Made by a program: the position numbers and the translations under genes. A stretch of 62,318 bases of DNA, filler included, from an uncultured bacterium (GTDB lineage Bacteria; CAYJOG01), in assembly GCA_964371695.1 (NCBI GenBank). It is 17 parts of 17 records of this genome, joined end to end, with 100 filler letters (N's around TTAATTAATTAA, not from the genome) between each part and the next. Parts side by side here need not be neighbours in the genome. Positions count along the whole stretch, not along the records: positions 15,091 to 18,765 come from CAYJOG010000369.1; 16 more parts are not named here. The stretch is one strand, 5' to 3'. Under the pieces are notes generated by a model. That model was not told the origin of the DNA, made no database searches, and worked only from the letters and a program-made list of their open reading frames with translations. Within the stretch, counting starts at the first letter, position 1. Every line of letters starts with the position of its first letter. Of this stretch, positions 11,315 to 51,717 are shown piece by piece.

Positions 11315-11481
11315 GGAGTCTTTCCAGATGCCCATTGGGGCATCTGGCCGAGCAAAGGCGATAGCGGCCTGCCCCGAAAACCGGAGGGTTGAAAACCCGC
11401 AGGTTTTCGCGCTCGTGGGCGGAATTCATTTCCGCCCACGGCGATCGAATAAATCCATGGAGGGATTTATGAGATAAGTTC
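11315..11481. repeat. Composite palindromic repeat (four hairpins)
   Basis: 11315-11366 is the exact reverse complement of 52077-52128. Further hairpins at 11391-11408, 11414-11440 and 11449-11470. Confidence 0.8.
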
Positions 11482-14990: not shown

Positions 14991-15226
14991 NNNNNNNNNN
15001 NNNNNNNNNNNNNNNNNNNNNNNNNNNNNNNNNNTTAATTAATTAANNNNNNNNNNNNNNNNNNNNNNNNNNNNNNNNNNNNNNNNNNNNGGTCTTTACC
15101 GTGCGGCGTTGTTTGCAAGGTTTCACGGATGAAACCGGCAAACCAATTTAAAAAACTGGGTGGGCGCACTTCAATAACCAATCGTGTCGCAGAAATTTTT
15201 CTTTTAAATGAGGGTTGGTCATTTAA

Positions 15227-17053
15227 ATGAAAGTTTTGGGTATCTCAGCTTTTAATCACGCCGCCGCCGCAGCGCGGGTGGTGGCGGGCGAACTCGTGCC
15301 CGCAGCCCAGGAGGAGCGAACCCCCCCCAAAAACCACGACCCGGACTTTCCGGTGAACGCCGCCCGTTTTTGTCTGGACAAGGCAGGGCTTGGGGTGGCC
15401 GACCTGGACGTGGTGAGTTTTTATGACAAACCCCTGCTCAAGTTCGAGCGCCTGTTGCAGACCTATCTGGCTTACGCACCGCTTGGATTCCGCTCGTTTG
15501 CGCTGTCCATGCCCCTGTGGTTTTCGCAGAAACTTTTTCTCGAAGACGAAATCCGCAAGGGCCTGGGGGGCTACACCGGCCCGGTGTTTTTCAGCCGCCA
15601 CCATGTTTCACACGCCGCCAGTGGATTTTTCCCAAGTCCCTTTGAAGAAGCCGCCGTGGTGTGTGTGGATGGCGTGGGTGAGTGGGCCACCACCTCCATC
15701 GCCCAGGGCCAGGGCAACCGCCTCACCATGCTGCGGGAGATCAACTTTCCCCACAGCCTGGGGCTGCTTTACAGCGCCGTCACCTATTACACCGGTTTCA
15801 AGGTGAACAGCGGTGAATACAAGGTGATGGGTCTGGCGCCCTATGGCCAGCCTCGTTATGTCCAGGCGATTCTGGACAACCTGATTGACCTGAAAGAGGA
15901 CGGCTCCTTTCACCTGAACATGGATTACTTCACCTATCCGGTGGGCCTCACCATGACAGGCCGCGCCCTTGAAAAACTCTTGGGCCACCCGGCGCGAAAA
16001 CCCGAAAGCGAACTGACACAGCGCGAGATGGATCTGGCCGCCAGCGTGCAGGTGGTGATTGAAATGGCCATGGACAGGCTGGCCCGCGAGGCCCACCGGC
16101 TCACCGGCTCGCAAAACCTTTGTCTGGCGGGGGGCGTGGCGCTCAACTGCGTGGCCAACGGCAAACTGCTGCGCGAGGGGCCGTTCAAAAAAATGTGGAT
16201 ACAACCCGCCGCCGGAGACGCCGGGGGCGCGCTGGGCACGGCGCTGGACGTGTGGCATCACCACGGCAATCAGCCCCGTGTGGTGAAGCCCGGCAGGCTG
16301 GACGCCCAGAAGGGCAGTTATCTGGGGCCGGAGATCACCCGTGATGAAGTCGCCGCCCTGCTCAAAAAACACAACGCCCCCGCCCGGTTTTTTGAGAATG
16401 AAGACGACTTGTTGCAGGTCGTGGCCCAGGCACTGGCGGCTGAAAACGTGGTGGGCTGGGCCTGTGGCCCCATGGAGTTTGGCCCCCGCGCTTTGGGGGC
16501 GCGGTCTATATTGGGCGACCCACGCTCAGCCAAAATGCAGTCCACCATGAACCTCAAAATCAAATACCGGGAGTCCTTTCGCCCCTTTGCGCCGTCGGTG
16601 CTGCGCGAAAAGGTGAACGAGTGGTTTGAGATGGACGCAGACAGCCCCTACATGCTGCTGGTGGCCCCGGTGTGTGAAGAAAAACGCCTGCCCGTGCCCG
16701 ATGGTTATGAAAACCTCTGGGGCATTGAACAACTCAATGTGCCTCGCAGCGTGATACCCGCTGTCACCCACGTGGATTATTCGGCGCGTATCCAAACCGT
16801 GCATGAAGAAACCAACCCGCGATACGCCCGGCTGCTCAAGGCCTTTGAAGCCCTCACCGGCTGCCCGGTGTTGGTGAACACCAGTTTCAACGTGCGCGGT
16901 GAGCCGATTGTGTGCAATGCCGAAGATGCTTATCGCTGTTTCATGCGCACCGAAATGGACTATCTGGTGCTGGGCGACTTTCTGCTGGACAAAAAAGAAC
17001 AACCCGCCCTGCCCAAGGACGAATCCTGGAAAAAGGAGTTCGCACTGGACTGA
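15227..17053 (+). CDS. O-carbamoyltransferase, NodU/CmcH/SxtI family
   Basis: HHVSHAAS, DGVGEW, SLGLLYS, GEYKVMGLAPYG, AGGVALNCVANG, EFGPRALG, KYRESFRPFAP, NTSFNVRGEP. Confidence 0.95.
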   Translation: MKVLGISAFNHAAAAARVVAGELVPAAQEERTPPKNHDPDFPVNAARFCLDKAGLGVADLDVVSFYDKPLLKFERLLQTYLAYAPLGFRSFALSMPLWFSQKLFLEDEIRKGLGGYTGPVFFSRHHVSHAASGFFPSPFEEAAVVCVDGVGEWATTSIAQGQGNRLTMLREINFPHSLGLLYSAVTYYTGFKVNSGEYKVMGLAPYGQPRYVQAILDNLIDLKEDGSFHLNMDYFTYPVGLTMTGRALEKLLGHPARKPESELTQREMDLAASVQVVIEMAMDRLAREAHRLTGSQNLCLAGGVALNCVANGKLLREGPFKKMWIQPAAGDAGGALGTALDVWHHHGNQPRVVKPGRLDAQKGSYLGPEITRDEVAALLKKHNAPARFFENEDDLLQVVAQALAAENVVGWACGPMEFGPRALGARSILGDPRSAKMQSTMNLKIKYRESFRPFAPSVLREKVNEWFEMDADSPYMLLVAPVCEEKRLPVPDGYENLWGIEQLNVPRSVIPAVTHVDYSARIQTVHEETNPRYARLLKAFEALTGCPVLVNTSFNVRGEPIVCNAEDAYRCFMRTEMDYLVLGDFLLDKKEQPALPKDESWKKEFALD

Positions 17054-17466
17054 TGTTTGCGCTGAACCAACTGCCCACGCCCAAGCCCAAAGACCTGCGC
17101 CTGTTTGGCGTACTGCTGGCGGCTTTTCTGGTTTTTCTGAGCTGGAAGTTCTGGCGGTTTGCAGGCGTGGCCCCCCGGGTGCTGTGGGGCGGCGCGGGGC
17201 TGGTGCTGTTGCTGGCGGCGGTGTTTCCAAGGGGATTGTTCTGGGTACACCGGGGCATGTTGCTGGCGGTGTTCCCGGTGGGCTGGCTGGTGGTGCATGT
17301 CTTTTTGCTGCTGGTGTTGTGTCTGGTGATGGCCCCCATCGGGTTTGTCATGCGGCTGACGGGGAGTGATCACTTGGCCCGTCGCTGGAACAAAAATGAA
17401 ACCAGTTACTGGCATGAGGCCGAACACCCACTGATGACGCCGGAAGATTTCAGTAAGCTGTATTGA
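17053..17466 (+). CDS. SxtJ-family membrane protein
   Basis: ATG overlaps the upstream stop; KDLRLFG, hydrophobic helices, APIGFVMRLTGSD.L......SYW. Confidence 0.8.
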   Translation: MFALNQLPTPKPKDLRLFGVLLAAFLVFLSWKFWRFAGVAPRVLWGGAGLVLLLAAVFPRGLFWVHRGMLLAVFPVGWLVVHVFLLLVLCLVMAPIGFVMRLTGSDHLARRWNKNETSYWHEAEHPLMTPEDFSKLY

Positions 17467-17480
17467 ATGAAGGAGCAGGG

Positions 17481-17645
17481 ATGAGCAAATTGAGCGTCTT
17501 CAAACAGTTGGCAGGTCTGGTGAAGGCCCGCAAGGCCTATGTGCTGGTGCCTGTGCTGCTGGCCCTGATGGCGCTGGCGGCGCTGGCACTGCTGGGCGGC
17601 GTGGGCGGCGGTGCGGTGCTGCCGTTCGTCTACGCATTTTTCTGA
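17481..17645 (+). CDS. SxtK/DUF5989-family small membrane protein
   Basis: AAGGAG RBS; ARKAYVLVPVLLAL...LPFVYAFF C-terminus typical of this family. Confidence 0.8.
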   Translation: MSKLSVFKQLAGLVKARKAYVLVPVLLALMALAALALLGGVGGGAVLPFVYAFF

Positions 17646-17666
17646 ACGATTTATGAAACAGTTGGA

Positions 17667-17690
17667 GTAGGCGCGGTGTCCCCACCGCGC
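17667..17690 (+). repeat. GTAG-type REP
   Basis: GTAG+GCGCGGTG-TCCC-CACCGCGC-type hairpin between convergent genes; a relative lies at 22308. Confidence 0.65.
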
Positions 17691-17761
17691 ATGTGACAGA
17701 CGGCGATGTGGACATCGCCACTACTTCAATAAACTCGCAAACTCGGTGAACCTGCTTCGAT

Positions 17762-18765
17762 TTACCGCTTTACGGCCAACACGTTCATCAGGCCAAAGCT
17801 GAACATGGGCACATAACGCCGCTCCAGCCCCAGCAGGCGGGCGGGCACGCGCAATATTTTTGCCAGGGGCGGAAACAGGCTTTCGAGGCGGTTCAGAAAA
17901 TAATCCACCGACAGAAACCGGCGGTGTTTGTAGAGCTTCACCACTTCAAAACCGGAATCTTCAAGCAGGCGCACGATGGTCTGATTCGAAAAATGAAACA
18001 GGTGCATGCGCATGAGGAACGGGTAACGGCTGCCGTAGAGGCGCGCCCACTGGCTCTGCATGTTGTGGGTGCTGAGCGCGAACAGGCCGCCGGGCTTGAG
18101 CAGCAGGGCGCACTGGCGCACGGTGTGAAAGGGGTCCGTGAGGTGTTCGATCACGTCCCACATGGTGAGGATGTCGAACGAGGCCGCCTGGGCGGGCAGC
18201 AGGTCATCCAGCGTTGCGCCCAGATACCGCCCCTGCAGGGCCGGGTTTTGCTCTCTGGCCCAGCGGGAGGGTTCCACGCCGTGGGTGTCCCACCCGGCTT
18301 CGCGGGCCACGTTCATGAACACCCCCACATAGGCCCCCACGTCCAGATGCCGCCTGTTCATGCTGACAGAGTCTTGAGAAAGTCCGTCCTGAACTTTCTC
18401 AACCGATTTTCCAGGAAATAAATTCCCGAAAAATCGCGGAAACCTGCGGTTTCCGGGGGCGCGCCGTCCGGGCGCGCGCAGGGTGTTTGTCAACACCCTG
18501 CCGGGCAGAAACGGCGTCATGTCCCGCAGGTGGCGGCGGAAGGTCATGATGCGCCCCTGGGTTTCCTGCAGATAGGTTTCGTCCACTACGTCTTCGTAAC
18601 TGCCCAGGATTTCGCCCTGGCTCTGTTCTTCTTCGCTGTAAATCAGGCCGCAGCCGGGGCATTTGAAAATATTCAGGTGGCGGCCAAAGTGGATGTTGGT
18701 GCAGGTGAACTCACCGGCGCTCAGCGGCTCGCCTGGGTGAATCCGAACCGGCTGCGCGACTACGA
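17762..18765 (-). CDS. Class I SAM-dependent methyltransferase with N-terminal CxxC (5'-truncated), carrying a 48-aa in-frame insert
   Basis: Frame open to the contig end (FTCTNIHFGRHLNIFKCPGCGLIY); HLDVGAYVG motif I, GVEPS, FDILTMWDVIEH, LLKPGG. Confidence 0.9.
18353..18496. mobile_element. 144-bp palindromic element inserted in frame in the methyltransferase
   Basis: Five consecutive hairpins, a CCTG direct repeat at both ends, and motifs shared with intergenic repeats. Confidence 0.7.
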
Positions 18766-19118: not shown

Positions 19119-21275
19119 ATGATCCGTTTCCAACCGGGGGCAGAGGCACCGCTGGGGCTGCTGCAGGTGCAGGTGGGCCTCAAGCCGGTGCTGAAGGTGG
19201 AGAATCTTTCCGCCGCTGTGGCCCGGCGGCTGGCGCAACAAGCGGCCCGCCTGGGTCTGGCCCAACACCGCGACGGCCCGGTGTTGTGGGTTTCCCGCGA
19301 AGCGGCCCTGGCCCGGTGCGCTGCGGACCTCACTCAGCGCGAGGCCGCAGGCGAGCGCGCCGCCACCGGCGAACTGGCGCGCCTGCTGGGTTACCCCCCC
19401 TGCTGCGGCGCGGTGTTCGCCAACTACACACCGCTGGACGACACCCGCGAGTTTGTCATGACCGCCTACTGGCGCACACGGGGGCGGTTTTATCCCGAAC
19501 TCAACAACCTGTCGGCGGATTTTCTCATCCACCACCAACCCTGTGGTTATGACTGCACCCCCAGTCTGGAACTGGCCCGGCGCTCGCTGGCATTGCTGGG
19601 CACACAGGAGGCGACACGGCGTTTGGCCGCCCTTTCGCGCCACGTGCTGTTTTTTGATCACGGCGCGTCATTCTGGCTGAAGGCGGGTGAGGCGCTGGAC
19701 AAGGCCGAGGTGCATGCTTCATCCCCGGCCCGGCGCAGGCAACTGCTCGCCCAACTTGGCGGGGGACCGCTCGTGCGCGGTGCGGGCCACTGGCGAGGCG
19801 TGCCAACCCACGATCGCCCACCCCTGCTGCTGCCCTTTGGCCAGGACTCGCCCGTGCGCAAGGCCCCGGCCCCCGTGCTGCTGGTGCAGACGGCGGACGA
19901 AAATGATCTGCCCCACCGCGCCCTGGCCCCCCTGCTGCTGGCAGACCTGCGCCTGATGGGAATCGCCGCCGCCGCCTGTCACCTGCACAACGGCAGCCGC
20001 ACCGAAAGGCTGGCCCCGTGGCTGCGGGAAAAGGGTTTCAACATGGCGCTTTTGATGGGGACGTTCGCCCCCGACTGGGGCACGGCGCTCGTGGCAGAAG
20101 GATTGGCCACATTGGGCGTGGCAACGGAAAACCCCTGGGCGGACCTGACCGTGCCCGCGCTGCACCGCCTGCTGATGCTGCGCCTGACAGACGCCCTGGC
20201 ACACGGCGAAATTTCGCCGGGGCGAGTGACGTTTGAGACATTGGGATTGACACCCGAAACTGTTTTTTCGCCCAAACACCACCAGCGCGACGACGCCCTG
20301 CTGAACACACCCGAAAGCCCCCGCGCCAAACGGCTGGCCGTGGTGCGGCCCGGTGCGGTGATTGAGGTGGCGAGCGTGTTGGGGGGCGGCCCCGCACCGC
20401 CCTGTGTGCTGCTGGCCCATCCTTCTGCCGCCGAGTTGAAAGCCGTTTTTCGCGGTCTGGAAAAAACGCCCCTGCCCGCCACCGGCTCTGAACTGGTGCT
20501 GCAACTCACAGCAAAAGAACAGACCGCGCTGTTGCCGTTGCTGGGCGCCGCCGCACCGTTTTGCAAAAAGCAGCACCTCACACTCACGGTGTTGCCGCCC
20601 CCCGGCGAAACCGGCGCGGCGCAAAAAAAACCGGCGTGGTCCATGCCCCTGGGGGCGGCCTATGAGCCGGGGCTGTGGCGCGTGGCGGTGCTCAAAAGCG
20701 TCTGCGAAAACCACTGCGCGCCCTGCGGGTTTGAGGCGCTGAAACCCCGCACGCCCCGCTTGTTTTCGCGGGCCAACGGTCAGAACGTGTTGTTCACCGG
20801 CCTGGACCCACTGCGCCACGCGGCCCTGGCGGAACTCACCACCGCCTGCCGCCGTTATGGCGCGCTGGAGGTGCGGGTGAAATCTCACGCCGGGGGCCTG
20901 ACGGCGGAACAGGCGCGGAACCTGCGCGCCGCCGGTGTGGACGGCCTGGACTGGTTCTGCCTTGGCCCCAGCGCCAGCGTGGCAGACGCCGTGGCCGGGC
21001 GCGAGGGGGCCTTCGCCGCGTCGCTGCGGGGGCAGCAGTACGCCCGCGCCGCAGGGCTGGTGGTGCGCCCCGTGATGATGGTTTTTCCCCGCCAGCTCAA
21101 CCTGGCTCGGCACACGCTGCTGTGGCTGAAAAAAGAGGGCTTCGATGAAGTGATTCTGCGGGTGCAGGGCGCGGGGCCAGAGGTTTTTTTCCGCGCCCTT
21201 TGCCAGCAACTGGGCGACGCCCTGGACCCCGCCCGCGACAAGCTGGACAACAGCCACCAGTGCGGGGGACTGTAG
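19119..21275 (+). CDS. Multidomain protein: DUF483-like N-terminus fused to a C-terminal radical SAM domain
   Basis: LLGYPPCC and HHQPCGYDCTPSLELA at the N-terminus; CENHCAPC (CxxxCxxC, 20703-20726), FTGLDP and GREGAFAASLRG at the C-terminus. Confidence 0.7.
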   Translation: MIRFQPGAEAPLGLLQVQVGLKPVLKVENLSAAVARRLAQQAARLGLAQHRDGPVLWVSREAALARCAADLTQREAAGERAATGELARLLGYPPCCGAVFANYTPLDDTREFVMTAYWRTRGRFYPELNNLSADFLIHHQPCGYDCTPSLELARRSLALLGTQEATRRLAALSRHVLFFDHGASFWLKAGEALDKAEVHASSPARRRQLLAQLGGGPLVRGAGHWRGVPTHDRPPLLLPFGQDSPVRKAPAPVLLVQTADENDLPHRALAPLLLADLRLMGIAAAACHLHNGSRTERLAPWLREKGFNMALLMGTFAPDWGTALVAEGLATLGVATENPWADLTVPALHRLLMLRLTDALAHGEISPGRVTFETLGLTPETVFSPKHHQRDDALLNTPESPRAKRLAVVRPGAVIEVASVLGGGPAPPCVLLAHPSAAELKAVFRGLEKTPLPATGSELVLQLTAKEQTALLPLLGAAAPFCKKQHLTLTVLPPPGETGAAQKKPAWSMPLGAAYEPGLWRVAVLKSVCENHCAPCGFEALKPRTPRLFSRANGQNVLFTGLDPLRHAALAELTTACRRYGALEVRVKSHAGGLTAEQARNLRAAGVDGLDWFCLGPSASVADAVAGREGAFAASLRGQQYARAAGLVVRPVMMVFPRQLNLARHTLLWLKKEGFDEVILRVQGAGPEVFFRALCQQLGDALDPARDKLDNSHQCGGL

Positions 21276-21721: not shown

Positions 21722-22156
21722 ATGTCCCTCAAAACACACAAAATCATCCTCACGGCCGCCGCACTTGGTGTCGGGGCCTTTCTGGGGGCCCACCGGGCCC
21801 AGGCCGCCAGCGTGATGTCCCCTCCGCCCGGCGTTTACATCCCCCCGCCCGGCACACCCACGCCAGGGACACCGTCGAACAAGCCCATGATTAAACCCAC
21901 AGGAGACACGGACATCATCTTCAGCCCCGGCGCCAACCCGAACCCCGGGAATATAGGGGGCACGATGACCACCAACAACGTGACAGGGGTCATGCACCTG
22001 CCCGTTGGCGTGGACTCTTATGTGAAGCGGCTTGAGGAACGGGTGGCGGCGCTGGAGGCCATCGTTCAGAAACTCTCGCCGGGCTTCATGCCCGTGGCCC
22101 AAAACATGGAGTTGGCCAACCCCAACAACAGCGTCAAAATCATGAATATGCATTAA
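21722..22156 (+). CDS. Small secreted Pro-rich hypothetical protein
   Basis: Signal peptide ending AQA-A, PPPG repeats, short coiled coil VKRLEERVAALEAIVQKL. Confidence 0.75.
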   Translation: MSLKTHKIILTAAALGVGAFLGAHRAQAASVMSPPPGVYIPPPGTPTPGTPSNKPMIKPTGDTDIIFSPGANPNPGNIGGTMTTNNVTGVMHLPVGVDSYVKRLEERVAALEAIVQKLSPGFMPVAQNMELANPNNSVKIMNMH

Positions 22157-22166
22157 GAACCCCTAA

Positions 22167-22470
22167 GAGCCTGTTTGAAAAGTCCACGACGGACTTTTCA
22201 AACCCAACGCCAGCGGGGGCAAAGCCCCTTCTGGACTTCCCCTGACCGTTTTATTGAAGCAGACCCCTCGTCAGTTTTGATGAGGGGTTTTTTGCCCGTT
22301 TTTTGGAGTAGGCGCGACACCCCCGTCGCGCAACAATCAAAACAAAATCAGGGGTTTTTGCTCTTTACGGCGGTGGGGACACCTGTGGCTACTCACGCCG
22401 CCAAAAAGAAAACAGAAAAGGGTTTTGGGCTTTTGTTTTTGCCACAGGCGAGACGCCCGTGGCTACTACT
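22167..22470. repeat. Repeat cluster: MITE-like half (22167-22230) plus three GTAG REPs
   Basis: TAA-GAGCCTGTTTGAAAAGTCCACGACGGACTTTTCAAAC; 22405-22466 matches 51917-51975 in reverse complement. Confidence 0.85.
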
Positions 22471-50487: not shown

Positions 50488-50668
50488 GAGCCTGTTTATC
50501 GTGCGCCATGTCTCACAAAGCGCACGATAAACAGGCTCTTGCGCTCATGGATGAGCGCACCCGAAAGCCGAAACTTTGAAAAAGTTGAGGTTTTCGCCAC
50601 GCCAAGGGGGCTTTGCCCCCGATGGCGTTGGGTTTTAAAAGTCCACGACGGACTTTTAAAACAGGTCC
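50488..50668. mobile_element. 181-bp MITE-like element with GAGCCTGTTT/AAACAGG(CT/TC)C ends, flanked by TTA on both sides
   Basis: TTA at 50485-50487 and 50669-50671; several internal hairpins; partial copies at 18866, 22167 and 52149. Confidence 0.75.
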
Positions 50669-51717
50669 TTAGAATATGGGCGCGCCGGTCTGGCGTAAAA
50701 ACCGTTCCACGCCCATCAGGTGCCACACCTGCCAGGCCCGGTCCTCACCGCGCCAGAACCCCTCCACCAGGCGGCGCACCGCACCGGGGTTCAGGAAGGC
50801 TCGGCTGTGCAGTTCGCCCATCAGGGTTTCCTGCACCCAGGGTTTCAGCGGCCCCCGCAGCCAGCGGGCGAGGGGCAGCAGAAAGGGCTGTTTTTTGCGG
50901 GTTTGCAGGGCAGGGGGCAGCAGGTCGGCCACGGCGGCGTAAAGGGCCTGTTTGGGGCGGGCCGTGAAGCGCACGGCGTCCGGCCAAGTGTTCACCCACT
51001 CCACCAGGGTGTGGTCCAGAAACGGCACGCGGGCTTCCAGGCTGTGGGCCATGGTGGTGCGGTCGGTGTAGGCCAGAAAATCTTCCACCAGCGTGGTGCG
51101 CAGTTCCAGCCAGGCAATGCGGCGGGTGATTTCGGCAGGGGCTTCCCCTTCAAAAGCCGCCACGGCCTTTTGACAGAAATCCTGCGCACTGAGCAGCGCC
51201 TGATGACCCGGCTGAAGCAGTGGCGTCAGTTCCTGCTGGGTAAAAAGGTTGATCCAGGCGGCGTAGTGCTCTTGCGGCGCCGCCGACAGCAGGCGATCGA
51301 GGCGACGGAAACGGTCGTTTTTCTGGCCCTGCAGCGCGCCTGCCCAACGGGGGGCCGCCGCGGCCAAAGACCGCAGACCGCCGGGGAAAAACTTCAGAAA
51401 CCCAAGGGCCTGAAGCCGCTGGTTGCGGTGATAACCCCCAAGTAGTTCGTCCGCACCAATGCCCGTGAGCACCACCTTGTGAGTTCTGGCGGCCTCGCGG
51501 GACAAAAACCAAGTGTGCAGGCCGCCGCCAAAAGGTTCGTCAAAAAACCGCAGGGCTTCGTCAAAGGCGGCGGTGATTTCTCCCGGCGCGAGGGATATGT
51601 CCACGTGGTCGGTTTGCAGAAAACGGGCGGTTTCAGCGGCCCGCTGGCGTTCGTCCAGGTCGGCCATGTCGCCTTCAAAACCCAGGCAGAAGGTGGTGAG
51701 GCGGCTCACCCTGGGGC
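50669..51717 (-). CDS. asnB: Asparagine synthase (glutamine-hydrolysing) family amidotransferase (5'-truncated)
   Basis: FDEPF, KVVLTGIGADELLGGY, DRTTMAHSLEARVPFLDH, RKKQPFLLP. Confidence 0.88.

Follow-up and report, generated by a model that had tools for sequence, protein, structure and literature searches.

Contig C369 in the draft genome of an uncultured sediment bacterium carries a gene for a class I S-adenosylmethionine (SAM)-dependent methyltransferase that holds a segment of palindromic DNA just upstream of the codons for its SAM motif I. Here we describe this segment, which is very probably a MITE (miniature inverted-repeat transposable element) derived from an insertion sequence (IS) of the IS5 family that inserted in frame and is still read through, giving the protein 46 extra residues. 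The analysed DNA of 62,318 nucleotides, called the window below, consists of 18 contigs of the genome chained by runs of N, hence it does not represent a single stretch of the chromosome. The genome (G000) comprises 672 contigs with 3.43 Mb in total and a G+C content of 61%, and is 83% complete.

The extra segment of the methyltransferase gene and its empty site

Contig C369 corresponds to window positions 15091-18765. The 3′ 1004 nt of the methyltransferase gene are located on it at 17762..18765 on the minus strand, with the stop codon at 17762, while the 5′ end is cut by the end of the contig, leaving approximately 30 first codons outside the window. The gene product combines an N-terminal four-cysteine domain with a Methyltransf_23 domain. 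The translated part (P0001) has 334 residues, and residues 137-277 match Pfam Methyltransf_23 with 88.8 bits (cut-off 27). A full-length product of 364 aa (P0002), which is 99% identical and likewise contains the insert, is recorded from three contigs, the longest of 24 kb. Its reading frame is open over all 364 residues. The invariant L, D and G columns of motif I are retained, as in Rossmann-type methyltransferase domains, and the nearest solved structures are UbiG-type enzymes (E 2.6e-11). The motif I codons (LDVGAYVG), which encode strand β-1 (residues 169-173 of P0002), are found at 18323..18346 on the minus strand and start six codons downstream of the insert.

In an alignment of 13 homologues, consisting of P0002, P0003, P0004 and ten more distant sequences, a single gap of 46 columns was found in 12 of the 12 sequences other than the near-identical P0002. 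The 46 residues are lacking in P0003 (91-92% identical) and in P0004 (71%). In a larger alignment of 40 sequences, the 39 other homologues were without the insert as well, some of them only about 40% identical. The empty site exists also at the DNA level. Run X6, which belongs to an unrelated groundwater study and a different habitat, contains a relative that is approximately 90% identical (57 differences in 546 nt). In record 19 of this run, the sequence matching window positions 18313-18354 is followed by GCCCCG and then by the sequence matching 18499-18652, with a net 138 nt absent. On the coding strand, the empty site reads FLPGTGRRH in the X6 relative and FLPSTGRRH in P0003. Hence, filled and empty sites are available for comparison at both the protein (P0003, P0004) and the DNA level (X6). 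The filled site was recovered in run X1, in which a separately built contig of 517 nt (record 4) spans positions 18123-18639 including both junctions with 0 differences. In addition, run X2 provided two contigs, each of them covering one junction.

The extra DNA of 138 bp (46 codons) is composed of an element of 134 nt together with a single copy of the 4-bp duplicated target. The element belongs to an IS5-derived family, of which it is a diverged or mosaic member, and extends over 18367..18500, as delimited by its terminal repeats in an alignment with 29 other genomic copies. Translated in frame on the minus strand, the insert yields residues 119-164 of P0002. The terminal inverted repeat at the hairpin-1 end (18367..18385, plus strand) matches the consensus CAGGGTGTTGAGAAAGTCC at 17 of 19 positions. 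The other terminal repeat, at the opposite end, has the outermost 9 nt AACACCCTG (18492..18500, plus strand), which match at 9/9 positions and provide the outer arm of a terminal 22-bp palindrome. The element is flanked by the tetranucleotide CTGA at 18363..18366 (TCAG on the coding strand), a decayed copy of the target duplication, and on the upstream side by CCGG at 18501..18504, a copy that is identical to the empty site of the X6 relative. Compared with that empty site, TCAG on the downstream side differs by two transitions and the linker codons after it have changed too, so that the duplication is no longer obvious. That the window copy did generate a duplication would follow from the net length of 138 bp and from the pattern seen in the family.

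Five hairpins follow each other along the element. Hairpin 1 (18374..18402; 10-nt arms, 100% complementary) is formed by the inner terminal repeat and its complement. It is followed by hairpin 2 (18404..18436; 14-nt arms, 86% complementary), hairpin 3 (18437..18455; 8-nt arms, 100% complementary) and hairpin 4 (18459..18477), whose 7-nt arms of G+C were seen in the RNA fold and by direct reading. Hairpin 5 (18478..18501; 10-nt arms, 100% complementary) is the terminal palindrome of 22-24 bp. When folded in mRNA sense, the 134-nt core formed five consecutive hairpins with -73.3 kcal/mol, whereas shuffled cores had a mean of -40.9 kcal/mol (z = -8.5) and 0 of 200 shuffles were as stable. The codon usage differs as well. 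The G+C content at third codon positions (GC3) is 0.57 in the 46 codons of the insert versus 0.80 in the other 287 codons of the gene, and the codons TTA, TCT and GGA, which the rest of the gene does not use, appear in the insert 1, 2 and 4 times. A scan of positions 18250-18600 against Rfam at E ≤ 10 returned two sub-threshold chance matches only and no family.

An earlier note on this DNA, made from the sequence alone, had described a palindromic mobile repeat in frame inside an intact methyltransferase just upstream of motif I, and the related copies and insert-free relatives bear this out. The homologue alignment it proposed as a check showed the expected single gap just before motif I, with a length of 46 aa. 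Its five back-to-back hairpins are present, four of them by repeat search and the one at 18459-18477 in the RNA fold, and the atypical codon use it had pointed out, including TTA and TCT that appear nowhere else in the gene, agrees with the GC3 values. Its measurements need correction. The size of 144 bp or 48 codons was too large by 6 bp, because the gap has 46 columns, and the boundaries 18353..18496 are off by about 14 bp compared with the element defined by copy alignment. Its CCTG direct repeat was rejected as a target duplication: one instance, at 18497-18500, forms the tip of the terminal repeat, and the other is a chance tetranucleotide. The junction FLPGRRHLDVG obtained by removing 144 bp does not correspond to the true empty site, which reads FLP(S/G)TGRRHLDVG.

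The repeat family and its IS5-type relatives

A BLAST search of positions 18340-18510 against the whole genome, the second check proposed in the earlier note, yielded 86 matches. Altogether 30 copies can be aligned end to end, and 35 paired loci were found in the draft genome. These loci are between 72 and 302 nt long, with 149 nt as the modal length. In the family consensus, the two ends read CAGGGTGTTGAGAAAGTCC and AACACCCTG, respectively. The terminal inverted repeats measure 19 bp, and at the second end the first nine bases recur in inverted orientation as the outer arm of a 22-bp palindrome. The 19-mer end had 29 matches in the genome at ≤1 mismatch, compared with 0 for a reversed control. 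The tetranucleotides flanking the copies are identical in 12/35 loci and agree at three of four positions in another 13/35, and YTAR fits the flank on at least one side in 20/35 loci. Small size, absence of a transposase and many dispersed copies are the properties of a MITE. In the X6 community, a 40-nt contig with a match to hairpin 1 has about ninefold the depth of the gene, as would be expected of a repeat present in many copies there, too.

Full-length elements with the same ends were detected in metagenomes, outside genome G000. Locus L096 is 1250 bp long and has the same 19-bp ends with CTAG on both sides; locus L091, with the same 19-bp ends, has a length of 1230 bp. Their transposases of 358-363 aa reach 266 or 256 bits on the NCBIfam model NF033581 for the IS5 family (cut-off 140) and carry the Pfam domains DUF772 and DDE_Tnp_1. 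Hence, an autonomous element with the same ends exists for this MITE family, although the sequence common to the window element and the full-length IS5-family elements is limited to the terminal 19-20 nt and the window element codes for no transposase. IS5 is described in an excerpt of one source as making 4-bp target duplications with a preference for YTAR (PMC5009759). Judged by these ends, the window element would have been moved by an IS5-type transposase supplied in trans.

Unrelated short elements of about 150-160 nt with the same 19-bp ends and YTAR-like flanks were noticed in other organisms as well, on contigs of public genomes and metagenomes (L066, L104, L108 and L111). Among these, L066 is an element of 161 nt with both ends in a Fibrobacteria bin. 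To judge from these sequences, the IS5-type end has given rise to MITEs repeatedly in different lineages. As the 19-bp ends are common to full-length IS5-family elements and to small derivatives elsewhere, the element is an ordinary IS5-derived MITE rather than one private to this lineage. A scan of public genome contigs with the 19-mer gave 36 single matches across many phyla; nearly all of these are located inside long open frames and look like chance, and only L066 and partly L070 and L076 look related. The corresponding scan of public metagenome contigs also gave 36 single matches, about a dozen of which represent one conserved gene. In a blastn search of a consensus-like copy against a plasmid collection there was no match, and neither 19-mer end was found in the literature searched, where 12-mer matches were unrelated primers. 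In the collection searched, G000 was the sole genome of its phylum, and the 40 ‘relatives’ were related at the domain level only; either the lineage is highly isolated or no taxonomy is on record for it.

The layout of five hairpins was kept over five representative copies while the stems were replaced. At 19 of the 55 predicted pairs both sides were changed in at least one sequence, in a small sample of five sequences with an uncertain alignment in the middle. The subfamilies swap whole stems, from A/T-rich to G+C-rich, and keep the loops. Related multi-hairpin elements with a variant terminal palindrome (CCGGGTGTT..ACACCCGG) are found at C179:3700-3860 (locus L083) and at window positions 11350-11450. 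The hairpin modules common to these two and to the methyltransferase copy suggest an exchange of modules among subfamilies.

Beyond the full copies, G000 contains 42 solitary 22-bp palindromes of the form CAGGGTGTT-N4-AACACCCTG (≤2 mismatches), for instance at C84:6831-6852, C22:9173-9194, C335:2825-2846 and C523:2313-2334, many of them with identical or YTAR-like flanking tetranucleotides. Such palindromes are the expected product of an interior deletion between the two direct CAGGGTGTT 9-mers of a full copy, and they may be ‘solo’ remnants of the MITE. A second and commoner hairpin repeat was observed at 116 loci, including window positions 22150-22230 and 50610-50680. It has the core AAAGTCC-N5-7-GGACTTT with outer arms such as TGTTTGAA or TGTTTTAA and often occurs after TAAGAGCCTG. 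This repeat has the appearance of a sister MITE family whose end sequence is related. Several copies of the MITE are located at, or run off, contig ends (C51:16-59, C468:3-145, C597:1810-1953, C451:2789-2846 and C320:4000-4036). The family is probably one cause of the fragmentation of the assembly, and its copy number is probably underestimated.

With regard to insertion into genes, the window copy is the only one of the 35 paired loci that lies in a credible gene. Long frames running through the copies on C172, C230, C5, C283 and C57 were rejected as genes, as all five had no Pfam match; the frame on C230 is in addition antisense to two flanking plus-strand reading frames. A search with residues 119-164 of P0002 in a large protein collection, covering entries of 200-637 aa, returned P0002 and no other protein. 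Hence, the family is overwhelmingly intergenic, with the window copy as a single surviving accident. These results bear on the wider claims of the earlier note. The hairpins it had related to the insert at 22178, 50637 and 11391 exist, and those at 22178 and 50637 belong to the second hairpin repeat. Its comparison to the coding insertions of Rickettsia holds for the window copy, which works in the same way, but not for the family as a whole with 1/35 copies in a gene. The suggestion of the lineage’s own family adding peptides to enzymes finds no support, given this single genic copy, a peptide that is restricted to P0002 within the 200-637 aa range searched, and ends that are shared elsewhere.

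Constraint on the gene and competing explanations

The methyltransferase shows the features of a maintained protein. Of the 46 columns that do not vary among 37 distant homologues, P0002 keeps 45, the same number as P0003. With P0004 as outgroup, there were five unique changes on the P0002 branch and eight on the P0003 branch, i.e. no acceleration. Among the 40 listed differences between the window and the X6 relative, 34 are at third codon positions; a further 22 differences are outside that list. As far as can be judged from sequence comparison, this substitution pattern is typical of a gene under purifying selection. In an AlphaFold2 model of P0002 with a mean predicted local distance difference test (pLDDT) score of 86.3, the insert is flanked on either side by values above 90. 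It comprises residues 119-164 and is placed between helix 99-116 and strand 169-173, which contains motif I. It has no secondary structure, with pLDDT <50 at residues 123-131 and 134-158. The earlier note had suggested a structure prediction as a test for a surface loop, and the model has a disordered loop before strand β-1.

We propose that the methyltransferase gene was the target of a transposing MITE of IS5-family origin, which would have entered the gene where a short linker joins the cysteine-rich N-terminal domain to the first Rossmann strand and would have duplicated 4 bp of the target. As the 138 bp are a multiple of three and contain no stop codon in the landing frame, the gene would still be read through, and the 46 extra residues would most likely form a disordered surface loop. 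We have high confidence in this explanation, which combines the family membership of the insert, the terminal repeats, the target duplications, the empty site and an intact frame with conserved residues of the fold. The enzyme is presumably still made and active, and we consider it rather likely that it is functional. The insert itself would then be a tolerated passenger rather than an adaptation.

Several observations weigh against this explanation or weaken its support. No IS5-type transposase (PF01609) was found in the assembly; as the latter is 83% complete and IS copies often remain unassembled, the absence of a resident transposase is not demonstrated. The flanking tetranucleotides of the window copy agree at only two of four positions and neither fits YTAR. 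Its interior is far from the family consensus and resembles pieces on other contigs, hairpin 2 a copy on C476 and hairpins 3 and 4 the element on C179 with variant ends of the same repeat, while the exact source subfamily is absent from the assembly. For this odd interior, a rare or mosaic subfamily is a better explanation than remodelling within the gene, because G+C-rich modules are also present in intergenic copies. A low pLDDT would be expected for the insert anyway, as no aligned sequence covers it. Runs X1 and X2 are weak as independent support, since they are possibly source samples of the assembly. No RNA run was found to contain the insert stretch, and the third-position bias and the rate test span the whole divergence, so that a very recent loss of function would stay hidden.

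The last two points lead to the alternative that deserves most attention, namely that the insertion is real but inactivated the enzyme, leaving a young pseudogene whose frame is open by chance. A segment of 46 residues six residues before strand β-1 and motif I could disturb cofactor binding, and the structured mRNA segment could impede translation. About one third of all insertions preserve the frame by length alone, and 13/35 copies contain no stop when read in the frame of the window copy. However, open insertions are not the rule: the length plus 4 bp preserves the frame at 16/35 loci, and only two of the 35, the copy on C7 and the window copy, combine a frame-preserving length with an open frame. 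The prevalence of third-position differences, the lack of acceleration on the P0002 branch and the retained invariant residues disfavour inactivation, as does the fact that three contigs of the protein cluster and at least two runs contain the same insert-bearing allele. We therefore regard a pseudogene as unlikely, but as an alternative to be reckoned with. The opposite possibility, that the 46 residues were co-opted and that the loop or the hairpin mRNA now serves a purpose, for instance as a flexible linker, as an interaction site or by causing translation to pause between the two domains, appears to us quite improbable. It would fit the position of the insert exactly at the domain boundary, the G+C enrichment of its right half compared with consensus copies and the maintenance of the hairpin layout across subfamilies with paired changes. 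Yet the modules did not take shape in this gene, as intergenic elements on C179 and C461 have them too, in G+C-rich versions as well; the peptide is unique to P0002 among the proteins searched, its closest orthologues work without it, and no structure is predicted in the loop. We give hardly more credit to the broader idea that the multi-hairpin layout is under selection and that the methyltransferase copy was kept for a useful structured mRNA or a 46-residue interdomain linker. If it were true, a MITE would here be turning into a protein module or a module of translational control.

The two remaining alternatives concern the reality and the direction of the event. In a bin of 672 contigs with several repeat copies at contig ends and with a discordant terminus of C369, a repeat copy might have been misjoined into the gene. 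We consider such an artefact highly improbable, because both flanks belong to the same gene in the same frame, the 517-nt contig crosses both junctions with 0 differences and two more contigs cover one each, and the 99% identical full-length protein with the insert comes from three contigs, one of them 24 kb long. A comparison of two states alone gives no direction, hence the segment might be ancestral and deleted in the relatives. This is the least credible of the alternatives, in view of the end-to-end homology of the segment to a dispersed repeat with terminal inverted repeats and target duplications and of its lack in 39/39 other homologues of the 40-sequence alignment, down to those with about 40% identity. 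An in-frame insertion of the MITE thus remains our explanation for the segment.

Three neighbouring genes are located on the plus strand of C369, convergent with the methyltransferase gene. A carbamoyltransferase gene (15227..17053) is followed by a gene for an SxtJ-like membrane protein (16912-17466) and a gene for a DUF5989 protein (17463-17645). The last 23 nt of the contig (18743-18765) differ from the contigs of runs X1 and X6, which run on as the N-terminal part of P0002. This end is probably an assembly artefact, and P0001 and P0002 differ in their first residues for this reason. An open reading frame of 718 aa on contig C370 (window positions 19119-21275, plus strand) had no Pfam match at E ≤ 0.001.

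Comparison with known systems

The case reported here is a MITE inserted in frame in a gene, a phenomenon known from Rickettsia and other bacteria. The survival of mobile repeats in frame within enzymes is one route to new protein loops and linkers, and there are few well-documented cases outside Rickettsia in which both alleles are available, the parent transposon is identified and the gene continues to be constrained. Our results indicate that an ordinary IS5-derived MITE can do likewise, in an uncultured sediment bacterium. The natural pair of alleles with and without the 46 residues offers a test of how far a Rossmann-fold enzyme tolerates additional sequence beside its cofactor motif. Moreover, such inserts should be anticipated in gene calling and in homology pipelines, so that the gene is neither split nor discarded.

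The terminal inverted repeats, target duplications, many copies and the comparison of filled with empty sites are shared with the MITEs Nezha and Chunjie, as far as these are covered in the pertinent part of PMC3184786. The element described here differs from them in having a row of five local hairpins instead of one long terminal stem and in the apparent exchange of hairpin modules among subfamilies. The similarity to the IS5 family consists in the YTAR-enriched 4-bp duplications and in 19-bp ends identical to those of L096 and L091, while the window element is without a transposase and shares only the terminal 19-20 nt. To our knowledge, REP/REPIN elements do not generate target duplications. 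According to the abstract of PMC3733652, they are palindromes of 20-40 bp, one end of which bears a GTAG or CGTC tag. An identity with REP/REPIN was rejected, as the window element has 134 nt and ends CAGG..CCTG, and its family has 4-bp duplications.

Other parallels are found among small repeats inside genes. In-frame gene fusions are known, according to extracts of PMC3184786, PMC10969869 and PMC5896051, for BRE of Bordetella, BOX/RUP of pneumococcus, ERIC, the MITEs of Anabaena and QMITE1 of Coxiella. All of these resemble the present element in being small, non-autonomous, mostly intergenic and occasionally located inside an unbroken coding sequence. They belong to other sequence families and other hosts, and in the present case the empty site is available at both the protein and the DNA level. 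A further parallel is provided by the Rickettsia palindromic elements (RPE; Ogata et al. 2000, 2002), which are described in portions of PMC10969869 and PMC3184786 and nearly half of whose copies reside in genes, as a passage of the former states (PMC10969869). The resemblance extends to a palindromic repeat of roughly 100-150 bp, its position in frame in a housekeeping-type enzyme gene, the addition of a peptide and a predicted site that is compatible with the fold. In contrast to RPE, only 1/35 copies is genic here, and the element possesses terminal inverted repeats, 4-bp duplications and a parent in the IS5 family.

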